Below are positions 22,383-27,585 of a stretch of 29,961 nt of DNA, piece after piece. The notes under the pieces were generated by a model that was not told the DNA's origin, searched no databases, and saw only the letters and a list, made by a program, of their open reading frames with translations. The first letter of the stretch is position 1. Each line of letters opens with the position of its first letter. Location: UHGV virus genome UHGV-0134758; one strand, given 5' to 3'. The stretch is from a virus. Made by a program: the position numbers and the translations under genes.

Positions 22383-23423
22383 GTGTTAGTTAAATATATA
22401 GGCGAGAGTTATATGGATAAACCTTGGCCGGGCATGCACATTAGAACATCTTGTCTGGAGGATGGTTTCTTTAGAGCAACGCAACCAAAGTATCTTAATG
22501 ATCCGTCGAGTGAGTCGCGACTTCTTCCATTTTTTAATAAATTTTCACCAGCCGATTACGCATGGGCTAGAAATGAATTTAAGAAAATGCAACGAGATCC
22601 ATCTTATGTCCCATCTATACAAGAGTTAGAGTATTATTTAAAACCTTGCGGGAAACGATACGGAGAGGATTTTCCACACTTGTTAATCAATGAAGGTTTT
22701 ACCTCAATGGATTCATATGATGAATCTAAACTCCAAGAAATAGTAACGTACCTTAACGATTATTTAGTAGAAGCCGTAAGCTGTCATCTTGGTGTGTTCT
22801 CTCTATCAAAAAGTGATTGCAATCTACACATGTGGACTCATTATGCATCGATAGGAAAGGGGTTTGCTGTAGTTTTCGATGAAACACACGATTTTTTCAA
22901 AATATATCGGCCGTGTGATGTTAGTTATAATCCAGAAGATAGAGCATCTGTAACCTATTATAAAGGCGCTGTGCGATTTAATGGCTATCCTGCGCCATCG
23001 AGGAATATAGATATAAAGAATAAAGATAATACATTGCATGGGATCTTAAATCGAGATTCAGTTCGCGAGCTTTTTATTAATAGGCTTCTTTATACAAAAG
23101 GTGAAGAGTGGCTTCCTGAAAATGAAAGTAGAATTATTTTTCCATTGGCTGATTGCGAGAGAAAAATAGGAAGTATTGTCTCTCCATCGATTGATGACTG
23201 CCTATTAAATGAGTATCCTGATGTTTTTCATGACTATCATGAAATTAACTTAAAGAAAATTCCTTTTTCTGCATTCAAGCAAATTACCTTAGGGTATAAC
23301 ATGACTGAAAAAGATAAAAATATAATTTTAGATAAAGTTAGTTCGAATAAAGAATTGTCTCACGTCAACGTATTACATTCAAAACTTGATATATACGGAA
23401 AGGTTGTGGTTAAGCCCATGTAA
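22383..23423 (+). CDS. DUF2971-like protein of unknown function; candidate single-gene anti-phage defence / abortive-infection cargo
   Basis: Markedly AT-rich 346-codon ORF (alternative ATG at 22413). Motifs FRATQPKYLNDPSSE and CNLHMWTHYASIGKGFAVVFD resemble the two DUF2971 signature blocks as I recall them. Isolated between the lxc-position ORF and the convergent mat-position ORF. Confidence 0.7.
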   Translation: MLVKYIGESYMDKPWPGMHIRTSCLEDGFFRATQPKYLNDPSSESRLLPFFNKFSPADYAWARNEFKKMQRDPSYVPSIQELEYYLKPCGKRYGEDFPHLLINEGFTSMDSYDESKLQEIVTYLNDYLVEAVSCHLGVFSLSKSDCNLHMWTHYASIGKGFAVVFDETHDFFKIYRPCDVSYNPEDRASVTYYKGAVRFNGYPAPSRNIDIKNKDNTLHGILNRDSVRELFINRLLYTKGEEWLPENESRIIFPLADCERKIGSIVSPSIDDCLLNEYPDVFHDYHEINLKKIPFSAFKQITLGYNMTEKDKNIILDKVSSNKELSHVNVLHSKLDIYGKVVVKPM

Positions 23424-23455
23424 TAATACGCTTATGTCTACACTTCATGATAAAT

Positions 23456-23477
23456 ACCTTCCTTAACTTAGGAAGGT
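23456..23477. terminator. hairpin (accttcc-ttaactta-ggaaggt) between convergent genes
   Basis: Lies between the stop of the 346-aa ORF (23423) and the stop of the minus-strand ORF (23521); the following sequence is T-rich. Confidence 0.4.
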
Positions 23478-23520
23478 TAGTTGTAGGTTTACGCAGAAAG
23501 TAACAAATAACCTTCGTAGG

Positions 23521-24162
23521 TTATAGAATATTATTCTTTCCGGTGAGTATTCCTTGAGGAACTCTAGCGCATCCCATAATTTGAGTTTTCTTGATGATGT
23601 TTATATATGACGCTATCAGCGATGAGTCATCACGACTATCCACTTCACAAGCCATTGCCCTGATGTAGTCGGCGCTGGCAACGTTGTTGTATTCCGTCGC
23701 AAAGCAACAGAGTAACGTCAGAACATGCTCTGTCGTTATTTCGCTCCAGTTGATGTTGAAAAATTCATCGCCTTTTTTATCGTGTTCGGAATCGAAGATG
23801 CTTTGGTGGAGGATGTATTTGCCGGATTCCTTGCGCGGTAACTTGATTGCTTTCTGGCGTTCCAGCTCCTTATAAATCTGCATTGCCTCAATTAGTACCG
23901 GCCTGCCGTTCATGAAGGGATCGCGCAACCTTACACGCTGGCCAACTCGACCAGTAATAAAGCTGTTTTCCTCTTCCACCAGCACGATAAAACCCTTTTC
24001 CTCTTTTTCTCGCAATTCGCGCAGCAGCTGGAGTTCCATGTCGCGGCGGCGTTCAGGGTAGCTGGTCCGCTCAGCCATTATCAGCTCGTTATTGATCCAT
24101 GCAGCAGTCATTGACGCCGGTTTGCCGACGCTCATCGAAACAACGCATATTTTCTTATCCAT
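23521..24162 (-). CDS. hypothetical protein (position of P1 mat, particle maturation)
   Basis: ATG at 24162 with AGGGG 5 nt upstream (the track's GTG start is at 24189). The late-promoter-like motif lies about 140 nt upstream. Confidence 0.5.
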   Translation of the reverse strand: MDKKICVVSMSVGKPASMTAAWINNELIMAERTSYPERRRDMELQLLRELREKEEKGFIVLVEEENSFITGRVGQRVRLRDPFMNGRPVLIEAMQIYKELERQKAIKLPRKESGKYILHQSIFDSEHDKKGDEFFNINWSEITTEHVLTLLCCFATEYNNVASADYIRAMACEVDSRDDSSLIASYINIIKKTQIMGCARVPQGILTGKNNIL

Positions 24163-24350
24163 AGCGCCCCTACAAAAAAGAAAAGCCACCAGCGGCGGCT
24201 TAGCAATACAACTGAAGGTAGCACCCGGTACTCAGACTGTGCCGTCCATGGAATATTTGAAAAGGGATCCATCCGTACCGGGCGTGTGATGATTCTGACT
24301 GAAGTCACTTGTCAGTTGTCAATCATTTATCATTAAAAATAATATATTTA

Positions 24351-24911
24351 TTAGTGCATGATGTTTGCCATCTCATAGGCGTCAGCCAGTAACTCCATCT
24401 CTGACTTGTTCAGCAGGGTGAATTCTTTCTTGCCTCCAACCACACCATCGGCATGAACAGGGACCAGCCAGGGGTATTTTGCTCTTACTTCAGCCGGTGC
24501 TGCATGCTGGTGGTGCCATCTACAAAGTGGCAATTGCTTTTTATGACAACCCGGCGCGGTGCGACCGGCGATATGGTGCAGAGACACTTCATTAGATATT
24601 ACTCCATGCATATAGCAGGCAATGCAGGGGAGAGCGCCAAGAGCATTGGCGATGCGCCGTTCCTCCGCCGTTGGTGTTCTCCCCTTCAAGCCACGAGATT
24701 TTATTTTTACCGCGCTTTTCCGCGTTTTGCTGGCTGGTGGGCGCTCTTTCTGTTTAGCGATACGGCGGTCGATAGTATCCCGCATTTTCTGATATTGAGA
24801 TTCTCGCCAGACCGGATCAGCCAACTTCTCCCGTTGCCGAGCGATCGCTCGTTCTCTGGCTGCCTTCTGCCACTTGCGGCACTGTTCAATTTTTTGTTCG
24901 ATTGTTTTCAT
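24351..24911 (-). CDS. ref: Ref-like HNH endonuclease (recombination enhancement function)
   Basis: 186 aa; Cys/His-rich HNH-type core CIACYMHGVISNEVSLHHIAGRTAPGCHKKQLPLCRWHHQ and a basic N-terminal region. Matches P1 Ref from memory; C1-operator-like sites upstream. Confidence 0.8.
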   Translation of the reverse strand: MKTIEQKIEQCRKWQKAARERAIARQREKLADPVWRESQYQKMRDTIDRRIAKQKERPPASKTRKSAVKIKSRGLKGRTPTAEERRIANALGALPCIACYMHGVISNEVSLHHIAGRTAPGCHKKQLPLCRWHHQHAAPAEVRAKYPWLVPVHADGVVGGKKEFTLLNKSEMELLADAYEMANIMH

Positions 24912-24917
24912 ATGGTC

Positions 24918-24943
24918 AAAAAAAAGGCGGCCTAATGGCCGCC
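24918..24943 (-). terminator. terminator-like hairpin plus U8 tract in the ref leader
   Basis: On the minus strand ggcggcc-atta-ggccgcc is followed by eight T, ending 6 nt before the ref ATG. Confidence 0.5.
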
Positions 24944-24996
24944 TATGATGTCAAGGAGTTAAGTAATGGCACGTCTTCGTAGTTGACAAAAACTGC

Positions 24997-25026
24997 GGAT
25001 CAATTATAGCAATAAATTAGAGCAAT
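24997..25026 (-). promoter_or_regulatory. pair of C1-operator-like 17-mers overlapping divergent promoter elements
   Basis: caataaattagagcaat (14/17) and ggatcaattatagcaat (12/17). Perfect TATAAT on the minus strand and TTGACA on the plus strand (approx. 24983). Coordinates are approximate. Confidence 0.4.
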
Positions 25027-25158
25027 TGTAGATATTTCATTTATCGATAATCACATTTTTTCTCTTCAGTGCCTGTGTGCTATACTCCTTCTTGATTGAT
25101 TGGATGCGGAATACAAACCCGCTCTTTTGTGCAGCCTGGCTCCTTGCCAGGCTTTTTT

Positions 25159-25470
25159 TTATTTCATCATGGAAGCTGTTAATGCTTTGGACCTTGCTGA
25201 ACTGATTGAGAGGGCTTTGTCAACGTGCCCCAAAAATTCGCCAAACTCAGACATCACTTTGGCAAAACCGCGCCGTGCTTCTTCCTCGGTGGCATTCATC
25301 ACGAAATGTTCAGCACTACGCATACTTTTGACAGGAAACGCAACGGATATTGAGTCAATATCAGGCATTCTATCGCTCAGCTTTACAGTGACAATGACGG
25401 CTGGCGACTGAATATTAGTGCTTACAGACAGCACTACATATTTTCCGTCGATGTTGAAATCCTTTCTCAT
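25159..25470 (-). CDS. hypothetical protein (position of P1 cra)
   Basis: 103-aa ORF between cre and ref on the same strand, with GGTGG before the ATG. A plus-strand ORF (25100..25411) overlaps it but runs through a terminator hairpin. Confidence 0.45.
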   Translation of the reverse strand: MRKDFNIDGKYVVLSVSTNIQSPAVIVTVKLSDRMPDIDSISVAFPVKSMRSAEHFVMNATEEEARRGFAKVMSEFGEFLGHVDKALSISSARSKALTASMMK

Positions 25471-25486
25471 ATGCCACCATAAACAT

Positions 25487-25503
25487 CAAAGAATTAGAGC
25501 AAT
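25487..25503 (-). promoter_or_regulatory. C1-operator-like 17-mer (13/17)
   Basis: caaagaattagagcaat between the cre stop and the start of the cra-position ORF. Confidence 0.35.
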
Positions 25504-25520
25504 CATTTACGCGTTAATGG

Positions 25521-26552
25521 CTAATCGCCATCTTCCAGCAGGCGCACCATTGCCCCTGTTTCACTATCCAGGTTACGGATATAGTTCATGACAATATTTA
25601 CATTGGTCCAGCCACCAGCTTGCATGATCTCCGGTATTGAAACTCCGGCGCGGGCCATATCTCGCGCGGCTCCGACACGGGCACTATGTCCAGACCAGGC
25701 CAGGTATCTCTGACCAGAGTCATCCTTAGCGCCGTAAATCAATCGATGAGTTGCTTCAAAAATCCCTTCCAGGGCGCGAGTTGATAGCTGGCTGGTGGAT
25801 GATGGCGAGGCAACACCATTTTTTCTGACCCGGCAAAACAAGTAGTTATTAGGATCATCAGCCACACCAGAGACGGAAATCCATCGGTCGACCAGTTTAG
25901 TTACCCCCAGGCTAAGTGCCTTCTCTACACCTGCGGTGCTAACCAGCGTTTTCGTTCTGCCAATATGGATTAACATTCTCCCACCGTCAGTACGTGAGAT
26001 ATCTTTAACCCTGATCCTGGCAATTTCGGCTATACGTAACAGGGTGTTATAAGCAATCCCCAGAAATGCCAGATTACGTACATCCTGGCAGCGATCGCTA
26101 TTTTCCATGAGTGAACGAACCTGGTCGAAATCAGTGCGTTCGAACGCTAGTGCCTGTTTTGCACGTTCACCGGCATCAACGTTTTCTTTTCGGATCCGCC
26201 GCATGACCAGTGAAACAGCATTGCTGTCACTTGGTCGTGGCAGCCCGGACCGACGATGAAGCATGTTTAGCTGGCCCAAATGTTGCTGGATAGTTTTTAC
26301 TGCCAGACCGCGCGCCTGAAGATATAGAAGATAATCGCGAACATCTTCAGGTTCTGCGGGAAACCATTTCCGGTTGTTCAACTTGCACCATGCCGCCCAT
26401 GACCGGCAAACGGACAGAAGCATTTTCCAGGTATGCTCAGAAAAAGCCTGGCGATCCCTGAACATATCCATCAGGTTCTTGCGAACCTCATCACTCGTTG
26501 CATCGACCGGCAATGCAGGCAAATTTTGGTGTACGGTCAGTAAATTGGACAT
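25521..26552 (-). CDS. cre: Cre tyrosine site-specific recombinase
   Basis: 343 aa, MSNLLTVHQNLPALPVDATSDEVRKNLMDMFRDRQAFSEHTWKMLLSVCRSWAAWCKLNNRKWFPAEPEDVRDYLLYLQARGLAVKTIQQHL...MVRLLEDGD. Essentially the P1 Cre sequence as I know it, with the cognate loxP about 420 bp upstream. Confidence 0.97.
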   Translation of the reverse strand: MSNLLTVHQNLPALPVDATSDEVRKNLMDMFRDRQAFSEHTWKMLLSVCRSWAAWCKLNNRKWFPAEPEDVRDYLLYLQARGLAVKTIQQHLGQLNMLHRRSGLPRPSDSNAVSLVMRRIRKENVDAGERAKQALAFERTDFDQVRSLMENSDRCQDVRNLAFLGIAYNTLLRIAEIARIRVKDISRTDGGRMLIHIGRTKTLVSTAGVEKALSLGVTKLVDRWISVSGVADDPNNYLFCRVRKNGVASPSSTSQLSTRALEGIFEATHRLIYGAKDDSGQRYLAWSGHSARVGAARDMARAGVSIPEIMQAGGWTNVNIVMNYIRNLDSETGAMVRLLEDGD

Positions 26553-26559
26553 TTAACAC

Positions 26560-26781
26560 TCAGATAATGGTTTTAAGTAAAGTGTACAGGATCGGCTCTG
26601 CCTTTACCTGTTTATGGTTCTCGTCATAGAAACGCCAGCGACCGCGCGTGCGTTCTATCTTTTCTTCACCGCGCGATAATGACAGTTGGCAACTATCACG
26701 ATCAAACCCTTTTGCCCGCCAGTAACCACGATTTTTCTCAAGCTCAAGATGAGTGGACACTTTAGCAGCTGAATATCCCAT
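26560..26781 (-). CDS. small ORF immediately upstream of cre (uncertain)
   Basis: 73 codons, AGAGGTG 4 nt before the ATG, TGA stop 7 nt before the cre ATG. No homology recognised; may be non-coding regulatory DNA. Confidence 0.3.
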   Translation of the reverse strand: MGYSAAKVSTHLELEKNRGYWRAKGFDRDSCQLSLSRGEEKIERTRGRWRFYDENHKQVKAEPILYTLLKTII

Positions 26782-26878
26782 TTTTCACCTCTGATTGATT
26801 GGTGGTGCTAAGTGCGCTACGCGAAATCTGGAGCACTAACACTGCCAACATTTCGCAGATTTTACGTAGCGCAACCTT

Positions 26879-26898
26879 GATCAAATGATCAAGTGATC
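26879..26898. promoter_or_regulatory. cluster of three GATC (Dam) sites within 20 bp
   Basis: gatcaaatgatcaagtgatc, with a fourth GATC near 26948. In the cre upstream region next to loxP. Confidence 0.45.
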
Positions 26899-26970
26899 AC
26901 TATTTGACCTGATAAGGTATTGAACTGTATGGATTTACAGGTAAATTGATCATGTTCAATAACCCTTAAG

Positions 26971-27004
26971 ATAACTTCGTATAATGTATGCTATACGAAG
27001 TTAT
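26971..27004. other. loxP recombination site (13-bp inverted repeats around an 8-bp spacer)
   Basis: ATAACTTCGTATA-ATGTATGC-TATACGAAGTTAT read directly, canonical loxP. Hand-counted, plus or minus 1 nt. Confidence 0.95.
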
Positions 27005-27047
27005 TAGGCCCGAAGAGGAGTTTACGTCCAGCTGCGCATAAAAATCA

Positions 27048-27064
27048 AGAATTATTAGAGCAAT
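27048..27064 (-). promoter_or_regulatory. C1-operator-like 17-mer (15/17)
   Basis: agaattattagagcaat between loxP and coi. Confidence 0.5.
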
Positions 27065-27130
27065 AAATTTTGAGAGAAAAATCCCACTCCACCAGCAAAA
27101 AACTGGATTGTTTTTCATAGTTGTTTGACA

Positions 27131-27147
27131 ATTGCTCTAATAAATTA
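27131..27147 (+). promoter_or_regulatory. C1-operator-like 17-mer (16/17) directly abutting a TTGACA -35
   Basis: ttgaca-attgctctaataaatta; candidate autoregulated promoter of the coi-c1 operon. Confidence 0.55.
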
Positions 27148-27375
27148 TAGTTTTGCCGCCGTTTCGTAATATGACATCAAGGCCATTTTCAGGTGTTATA
27201 GAGCGGCTCAGAAGGAAATGAGCAAACAGGGAAACCTTATACAAACGGCATTACGGCTATGCATTGCTCATCTTACACACAGCGCAATGTTGTTAGATAA
27301 CCCCAGCATGGATCATGGGTGAAACAGTAGGTCAGAGCTTCAGGCTCTGTGTTGCAAATACAGTGAGGCATAATT

Positions 27376-27585
27376 ATGGCTTTCATTCAACCAACCATCG
27401 ACGACGTTAGACATTGCTCTAACGCTTTATCTGTAGATCCCACCGAAACCGACGCTGCCCGCGCCATTGCTGAACACTACTCAAAGATATCCAATCAGGA
27501 GTACCGCATCACCCAAGACGACCTGGATGACCTCACTGACACAATCGAATATCTCATGGCAACTAACCAGTTAGACTCACAATAA
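27376..27585 (+). CDS. coi: Coi-like C1 inactivator
   Basis: 69-aa acidic protein immediately upstream of c1, GTGAGG Shine-Dalgarno. Size and position match P1 Coi from memory. Confidence 0.7.
   Translation: MAFIQPTIDDVRHCSNALSVDPTETDAARAIAEHYSKISNQEYRITQDDLDDLTDTIEYLMATNQLDSQ

Follow-up and report, generated by a model that had tools for sequence, protein, structure and literature searches.

What does the 244-bp spacer between c8 and ref encode on its two strands, and how does it control the expression of ref, a gene which begins directly behind a GC-rich hairpin and a U-tract? The window, i.e. the whole stretch of DNA analysed here (29,961 bp), is a P1-type plasmid prophage with 97% identity to P1. 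The segment 24300-25600 aligns to nt 1388-2688 of P1 (AF234172, reverse complement) with 97% identity and to P7, RCS47, SJ46 and other P1-like phages with 91-95% identity, and about 700 plasmid records in PLSDB, carriers of the spacer, contain the 321-bp core. The genes cre (25521-26552; ORF list and AF234172), c8 (25159-25470; 103 aa, listed as an ORF and annotated in AF234172 as 'establishment of lysogeny, putative') and ref (24351-24911; 186 aa, found in the ORF list, with 97% identity to P1 ref of AF234172 and encoding a RecA-dependent HNH nuclease) are all three located on the minus strand of the window. The original prediction spoke of a cra-position ORF at the c8-proximal end of the spacer; this ORF is c8 and not cra, which lies upstream of cre in AF234172.

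The ref-strand half of the spacer, i.e. promoter, operator and attenuator before ref, is already established P1 biology. AF234172 annotates at homologous positions the promoter P2ref (-35 and -10), the monovalent C1 operator Oref (former Op1/Op2a) and the predicted promoter P1ref, and according to this record the GenBank entry M23246 (PP1REFA) covers exactly the c8-ref spacer. The title of Windle et al. 1988, as cited in PMC4713147, names an 'attenuator' of ref and points to an 'antiterminator'. Inactivation of C1 raises ref mRNA 73-fold (Ronayne et al. 2016, PMC4713147), one of the ref promoters is occluded by a C1 site (PMC4713147), and H-NS binds to the ref 5' regulatory region at CGATAAA (PMC4713147), a reported nucleation motif which we read at 25040-25046 on the minus strand. 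Neither of the two hairpins of the spacer nor any plus-strand feature is annotated in AF234172, and no terminator is annotated across the roughly 16 kb of this record inspected. Our analyses suggest the locus overall being mostly known biology with one modest lead, a predicted plus-strand unit. As new aspects we describe a strand-specific retention of G·U pairs in the ref-proximal stem and a promoter-leader-terminator unit kept in relatives without ref, and we observed that the leader has no competing antiterminator fold and no conserved leader peptide and that ref has no Shine-Dalgarno sequence (SD). In our assessment the span is probably the known ref control region of a P1-type prophage, composed of P2ref/Oref and a terminator acting as damper, plus a rightward terminator.

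The sigma-70 promoter P2ref (25003-25032, minus strand; annotated in AF234172) has the layout TCTACA-18-TATAAT with a perfect extended -10, TGcTATAAT (25011-25003), reaching 10/12 matches plus the TG in our promoter scan, and its start is expected near 24996. The minus-strand TATAAT which had been placed about 60 nt upstream of the hairpin is present at 25008->25003, about 59 nt away. Using the asymmetric 17-bp C1 consensus ATTGCTCTAATAAATTT with a cut-off of at most 3 mismatches we obtained seven operator matches in the whole window compared to 0.17 expected. One of these is Oref (ATTGCTCTAATTTATTG, 25010-25026, minus strand; 3 mismatches; annotated in AF234172), a single C1 operator overlapping the P2ref spacer between -35 and -10. 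The claim of two C1-operator-like sites does not hold at this cut-off, as Oref is the only site in the span with at most 3 mismatches and AF234172 describes it as monovalent; the candidate for a second operator, ATTGCTATAATTG, was rejected as being a partial direct repeat that coincides with the P2ref -10 itself. Divergent promoters overlapped by operators are likewise not what we find, since there is a single operator, about 21 nt away from the plus-strand TTGACA, and since no acceptable -10 accompanies this TTGACA.

The element directly preceding ref is a predicted intrinsic terminator, or 'attenuator' (24918-24944, minus strand), with an 8-bp stem (7 GC), an AUUA loop and a U8 tail. On the ref strand the hairpin AGGCGGCC-AUUA-GGCCGCCU extends from 24944 to 24925, followed by U8 (24925->24918), by GACCAU and by the ref ATG at 24911, and the sequence immediately 5' of the stem reads CAUCAU. 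Direct reading thereby confirms a GC hairpin with a U8 tract ending 6 nt before the ref ATG. A search on either strand of the window with strict terminator criteria (a perfect 7-bp stem, at least 6 GC, a loop of 3-6 nt and 7 or more T among the following 8 nt) returned only the two spacer hairpins, and no match was obtained in 100 dinucleotide shuffles. For comparison we used 90 related loci together with the loci from two DNA-pattern scans, 197 loci containing the c8-proximal hairpin, and nucleotide diversity (π) was computed among 31 unique ref-containing haplotypes. An exact 16-mer scan of IMG/VR with the leader block gave 28 matches, at least 14 of them in P1-like contigs from the c8 query; as a database this large is expected to contain chance matches to a 16-mer, the scan was uninformative. 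Among 64 unique relatives, all substitutions in the ref-proximal stem are C->T (GGCCGCT, GGCCGTT, GGCGGCT), each of which leaves G·U paired on the ref strand and would produce an A·C mismatch if the opposite strand were transcribed; no disruptive change of this stem occurs in these relatives, and the loop is found in five forms (ATTA, ATCA, GAAA, GCAA and TAAA). Neither hairpin shows double-sided covariation, its stem being almost unchanging; for the leader, 19 variants were analysed with RNAalifold and by counting pairs, and no such covariation was seen. Judged by sequence comparison, the ref-proximal hairpin is a genuine ref-strand terminator with which the conserved cre-c8 module ends.

At least three diverged subtypes, the majority of them from Escherichia albertii, carry in place of ref a convergent gene encoding a KilAC-domain antirepressor, the stop codon of which is located 9 nt from the ref-proximal hairpin. 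These ref-less relatives retain the operator, the extended -10, the 5' helix of the leader and the hairpin with a T6 tract, and the junction falls exactly after T6. The comparison indicates that ref is an HNH nuclease gene occupying a variable cargo slot directly behind the terminator.

The 79-nt leader RNA predicted from P2ref folds with a minimum free energy (MFE) of -25.9 kcal/mol (z = -4.9). MFE and centroid folds place a 5' stem-loop at 24969-24996 (minus strand), and the following 24-nt linker CAUUACUUAACUCCUUGACAUCAU (24968-24945, minus strand), which contains CUCCUU, is unpaired in the fold. The 5' helix is retained in diverged relatives via a different register (GUGGC/GCCAU) without classical covariation, and the linker, differing between subtypes, is not especially conserved (π = 0.061). 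The linker region includes part of the homologue of P1ref (24945-24972, minus strand; position transferred from AF234172), a predicted weak promoter reading GTGCCA-16-CATCAT in the window and TTGCCA-16-CATCAT in P1, of which the hexamer cores GCCATT and ATCAT are invariant in the 19 leader variants. The predicted P1ref start falls inside the hairpin 5' arm, by which the terminator would be bypassed. Constrained folding with the 3' arm blocked or not yet transcribed revealed no antiterminator helix, the 5' arm being essentially unpaired, and the result was the same for the P2ref transcript and for the transcript reading through from c8. Of the two fates proposed for the leader in the original prediction, attenuation is supported and already published, with a C1-repressed promoter followed by a leader and a terminator right before the SD-less ref, and processing of the leader finds no sequence support. 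A variant in which the frame being open through the hairpin in P1 results in an N-terminally extended Ref was discarded, as a TAG and a shifted frame occur both in the window and in several relatives.

At the level of translation, the duplex of ref with the anti-SD has an energy of +0.7 kcal/mol, and no real gene among the 17 tested ORFs of at least 150 codons has a weaker one. The proposal that the hairpin leaves no room for a conventional SD agrees with ref showing no anti-SD pairing, and in every relative ref has no SD and the U-tract ends 3-6 nt before the AUG. Ribosomal protein S1 is described in PMC3518124 as able to start translation without an SD.

P2ref, a strong promoter overlapped by Oref, fires toward ref, and the terminator is located about 79 nt downstream. 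The data support a model according to which most P2ref transcripts would stop at this terminator, ref mRNA representing the read-through fraction and perhaps also a weak P1ref start within the hairpin 5' arm. The ref-proximal hairpin would also end cre-c8 transcription, since cre and c8 are upstream on the same strand with no intervening ref-strand terminator, and would shield lysogens from the harmful Ref nuclease. The terminator may serve as a fixed damper keeping Ref very low in lysogens, with C1 together with H-NS setting the input. Antitermination, if there is any, would need a factor acting in trans, because the leader has neither an intrinsic antiterminator fold nor a conserved leader peptide. 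Ribosome loading would probably be of the S1 type and independent of an SD, using the U-tract together with the A-rich surroundings of the start. On the opposite strand, the hairpin at the c8 stop would bar plus-strand transcription from c8-cre, and it would most likely also end a predicted RNA of about 68 nt begun at a candidate promoter, TGcTATACT. Against this model, the 73-fold induction of ref fits poorly with so strong a terminator unless read-through is appreciable or a factor helps.

Three further readings of the ref strand have to be weighed against this model. The hairpin and U8 could mainly be a translation element, the U-tract recruiting S1 in replacement of an SD, which would be compatible with partial termination. 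The missing SD in all relatives, the constant position of the U-tract 3-6 nt before the AUG, the SD-less initiation which S1 permits according to PMC3518124 and the clear expression of ref after induction (PMC4713147) all agree with such a role; we nevertheless judge it unlikely, as elements with no gene behind the hairpin still keep it with its T6, which argues for a transcriptional role, as its features match those of efficient terminators and as the 1988 study speaks in its title of an attenuator. The same ref-less relatives are also what makes it conceivable that the P2ref leader is a stand-alone, C1-repressed sRNA of about 79 nt acting in trans during lytic growth, ref being mere cargo. 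The leader is built like an sRNA, with a 5' hairpin, a single-stranded linker and a terminator, its promoter, operator, 5' helix and terminator are kept at the cre-c8 3' end in at least three ref-less subtypes with no same-strand gene behind them, and a short terminated transcript from the late promoter of Stx phage acts as a regulatory sRNA (PMC7547250). However, ref-less elements would need a terminator against the convergent gene, which accounts equally well for the retention, the linker is variable between subtypes (π 0.061), complementarity elsewhere in the window does not exceed 9 nt and is at chance level only, and there is no Rfam match, so that we regard an independent sRNA as distinctly improbable. 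Ribosome-mediated attenuation via a leader peptide (GTG CCA TTA CTT AAC TCC TTG ACA TCA TAG) appears scarcely credible to us: in the window the TAG stop of this nine-codon GTG ORF touches the terminator 5' arm, which speaks in its favour, but the ORF has no SD, its frame runs through the hairpin in P1-type relatives, it stops after 3 codons in ref-less relatives, and a 1-nt indel changes both its start codon and its frame. With start, frame and stop of the ORF differing between subtypes and an SD missing, the leader peptide was rejected as a candidate.

The control region preferred here, i.e. P2ref/Oref with a terminator damper, is orthologous to the P1 ref region (P2ref/Oref/P1ref; Windle, Laufer and Hays 1988; AF234172, annotated by Lobocka et al. 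2004), with 95-97% identity and the same positions of promoter, operator and hairpin. The window differs from P1 by having GTGCCA for TTGCCA in the P1ref -35, a TAG abutting the hairpin and one extra A between U8 and ATG. Its architecture, a promoter with a near-immediate strong terminator before the served genes and a short RNA as by-product, resembles PR'-tR' of lambda and Stx phages (6S RNA/StxS). In these phages a constitutive promoter is used and read-through depends on the Q antiterminator, whereas ref has a repressor-controlled promoter, a single downstream gene and no known antiterminator protein or qut-like site. Free-standing HNH and GIY-YIG genes of the T4 type also lie behind a hairpin, which limits their read-through expression, and a second promoter inside the hairpin bypasses the block; the T4 hairpin sequesters the ribosome-binding site, so that control is exerted on translation, and the bypass starts from a late promoter. 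Compared to these genes, ref shares the HNH fold, the hairpin directly before the gene and P1ref as a putative bypass, but its hairpin is a predicted transcription terminator with no ribosome-binding site to hide. In the leader of E. coli rnd (RNase D), a GC hairpin with U8 before the start codon reportedly promotes translation rather than termination, a finding attributed to Zhang and Deutscher, and rnd is said to still have an SD-like element and a UUG start; ref differs by an AUG start and no SD. Within the same phage, the c4 antisense RNA (immI) is a precedent for a small regulatory RNA within the leader of a C1-controlled operon; c4 and the putative RNAs of the spacer have no sequence or structure similarity, and c4, a processing product of a longer transcript, targets sites located downstream in its own mRNA. 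Ref sensitises P1 lysogens to ciprofloxacin, so the tightness of ref control matters for phage-antibiotic synergy and is also relevant to P1-like plasmids, which are very common in E. coli and Salmonella. To the established picture we add comparative evidence showing the terminator to be a real RNA element, specific to one strand and bounding a cargo slot.

The other end of the spacer carries a second predicted intrinsic terminator, this one on the plus strand (25133-25160; 8-bp stem with 6 GC, 5-nt loop, T8), formed by the hairpin AGCCTGGC-TCCTT-GCCAGGCT at 25133-25153 and a T-run reaching to 25160. The predicted hairpin and T-run at an ORF stop are thus present, the T-run overlapping the TAA (25161-25159), with the correction that the ORF is c8. 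The hairpin is unidirectional, as reading the minus strand reveals GCACAAAAGAGC and no U-tract behind the stem. Its stem is invariant except for one change, for which only the plus strand has a G·U pair; four loop variants occur, and a T-run of 5-9 nt is found in all relatives. This predicted plus-strand terminator is genuine and unannotated. One of its roles would clearly be to prevent rightward transcription from entering c8-cre, as in ref-less relatives no other plus-strand terminator lies between the KilAC gene and this hairpin. In ref-containing elements there is no plus-strand gene between 23480 and 25130.

Upstream of this terminator by 47 nt and outside the operator, direct reading reveals a candidate extended -10 promoter, TGcTATACT (25078-25086, plus strand), with a predicted start at about 25093-25095. 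It is intact in 81/84 unique relatives, TA replacing TG in 2/84, and it has a poor -35 (TTTTCT) and stays below the threshold of the promoter scan. The candidate RNA of about 68 nt (25094-25160) folds with z = -3.2, and its body (25094-25132, plus strand) is predicted to consist of an unpaired 5' end, GAUUGAUUGG, and a small hairpin (25102-25125), in which one-sided changes split 2:1 in favour of the plus strand, a ratio which does not decide between the strands. Diversity is lowest in the plus-strand terminator (π 0.004), the RNA body 25094-25132 (π 0.010) and the extended -10 region (π 0.017), compared to π 0.036 at c8 codon positions 1+2, π 0.118 at c8 codon position 3 and π 0.093 in P2ref/Oref. 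Segregating sites amount to 9/87 in 25075-25161 versus 39/87 next door, and the low-diversity block from about 25075 to about 25200, the least variable in the locus, reaches about 40 nt into c8. This low diversity of 25075-25200 could reflect recombination history, the genomes being mosaic, rather than constraint. An Rfam scan of 23000-27500 at E<=1 yielded only sub-threshold generic sRNA matches, with SorX being the best for the candidate plus-strand RNA (22.6 bits versus a gathering score of 46.6). Searching the window for complementary k-mers returned nothing above chance, namely 9-10-mers, of which one is located directly before the ribosome-binding site of cra, and the literature searched yielded no transcription-start or sRNA map of P1. 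A plus-strand RNA is plausible, and it is predicted to be probably about 68 nt rather than 140 nt in length and not C1-controlled.

A competing explanation for this half of the spacer requires no dedicated small RNA: the c8-proximal hairpin may merely be a terminator protecting against convergent or antisense plus-strand transcription, coming from the KilAC gene in ref-less elements or from an antisense-ref promoter such as TTGTCA-16-AATAAT (24316-24343), and 25075-25200 would owe its conservation to an element at the 3' end of c8 or to the history of recombination. We hold this to be a serious possibility, short of probable. The hairpin being the first plus-strand terminator past the KilAC stop in ref-less relatives, a plus-strand promoter-like site with 10/12 matches abutting the homologue of the Omat operator at the 3' end of ref, and the low-diversity block continuing into the c8 coding sequence are all in line with it, whereas the ref-containing elements with no plus-strand gene in 23480-25130, the extended -10 located 47 nt upstream of the hairpin and intact in 81/84 unique relatives, and the intervening 39 nt being less variable than the c8 first and second codon positions are features it does not account for. 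The original prediction instead envisaged a plus-strand RNA of about 140 nt ending at 25160 from a C1-controlled promoter divergent from P2ref, with its TTGACA at 24983-24988, inside the ref leader. This TTGACA is indeed present and perfect, its TTGAC core occurs in all leader-retaining relatives, a TATAGC at 16-nt spacing offers a candidate -10 overlapping the P2ref -10, such that Oref would cover about +1 to +17, and a genuine plus-strand terminator lies downstream. What does not stand is the promoter as a whole, for none of the candidate -10 hexamers (TATAGC/ATAGCA at 16-17 nt) ends in the conserved T, and the site is missing from the promoter scan. The TTGAC/GTCAAC conservation is accounted for by this block building part of the loop and stem of the leader 5' hairpin. 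The 140-nt RNA itself would include 25020-25075, one of the most variable stretches of the locus (π 0.07-0.13), and its fold is unremarkable (z = -1.8), so that we consider this transcript very unlikely. A more far-reaching view takes the spacer as two back-to-back sRNA genes, each with an extended -10 (TGcTATAAT leftward, TGcTATACT rightward) and a strict terminator, ref being cargo exploiting terminator leakage; we regard it as speculative and give it little weight. If it were true, the leftward RNA of about 79 nt would be C1-repressed, lytic-specific and persisting without ref, and the rightward RNA of about 68 nt would lie antisense to the 3' end of c8 and could tune the cra-cre operon, since its free 5' end GAUUGAUUGG matches the region directly before the cra ribosome-binding site.

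Next to the ref control region with its terminator damper, our comparison thus suggests the least variable piece of the locus being an unannotated putative promoter and terminator unit on the plus strand, and this unit and the leader-as-sRNA idea are modest leads. To our knowledge, the plus-strand RNA, if made, would be the second small RNA in P1 after c4, and it adjoins cre. The candidate promoter TGcTATACT is retained also in elements whose homology ends at transposon ends, at about 25072.

We identified in mat, the gene next downstream of ref, a control and start region (window 24150-24322, minus strand) with the same layout as that of ref, i.e. a promoter region Pmat/LPmat, a leader of about 100 nt, a terminator-like hairpin and then an ATG. 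The hairpin, AAGCCGCC-GCU-GGUGGCUU plus UUCUUUUUUG, runs from 24201 to 24183 on the minus strand and the ATG located 3' of it lies at 24162 on the same strand, suggesting that a leader terminator is likely present for mat as well as for ref. In the P1 record, Mat begins at an upstream ATG in a frame that passes through this hairpin. The two ATGs stand 111 nt apart, and so share a frame, in only 25 of 56 loci; in the other 31, the window included, the spacing is 109, 110 or 112 nt and the frame is lost. This suggests that the first 37 amino acids of the annotated Mat are probably not coding.

What lies behind the c8/P2ref terminator differs between relatives, which makes this slot a site for variable cargo. 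In the related loci L003, L004, L013, L021, L023, L032, L045, L052, L058, L064, L065, L080 and L087, a convergent gene encoding a KilAC-domain antirepressor takes the place of ref, in the region homologous to window 24918 leftward, and the TGA of this KilAC gene is found 9 nt from the hairpin. Spacer homology breaks off at window ~25072 in the related loci L007, L078 and L044 and at ~24960 in L015; the sequences at these ends (GGGGTCGTCTCAGAAAACGG...) we take to be Tn3-family terminal inverted repeats. Two distinct junction sequences, only a few bp apart, are found just upstream of the extended -10 on the plus strand. The contig L088 (JQCU01000589.1, 411 nt) bears the label Acinetobacter idrijaensis. 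It contains c8 together with the neighbouring spacer at 95-98% identity, and has the look of contaminating DNA or of a stray piece of a P1-like element, not of a locus that truly belongs to Acinetobacter.

On the c8 strand the sequence CCAATCAATC(A) forms a direct repeat, with one copy downstream of c8 at 25094-25103 and the other at 26793-26802, just ahead of the Shine-Dalgarno sequence of cra (CCAATCAATCAGAGGTGAAAAATG). The 5' end of the predicted plus-strand RNA is therefore complementary to the region in which translation of cra is initiated. The two copies hardly vary, and 10-mer matches within the window are no more numerous than chance would give. The plus strand also contains, in the complement of the leader linker (24953-24986), an AAGGAG-N7-ATG arrangement opening a six-codon ORF (MARLRS*), of which the SD-ATG pair is present in most relatives and the peptide is not kept. 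With a second plus-strand motif, ACTCCTT at 25084-25090, it would allow a 7-bp long-range pairing (AAGGAGU/ACUCCUU) in the c8 read-through RNA; both the ORF and the pairing are probably due to chance.

An operator-like sequence, ATTGCTCTAATTCTTTG (25487-25503, minus strand), shows four mismatches to the C1 consensus and is placed between cre and c8, 17-33 nt ahead of the ATG that opens c8; AF234172 bears no operator annotation for this site. A promoter-like TTGTCA-16-AATAAT (24316-24343, plus strand, 10/12 match), directly adjoined by the Omat operator homologue (about 24343-24360), points antisense into ref, and any transcript starting from it would extend to the plus-strand terminator at 25133-25160.
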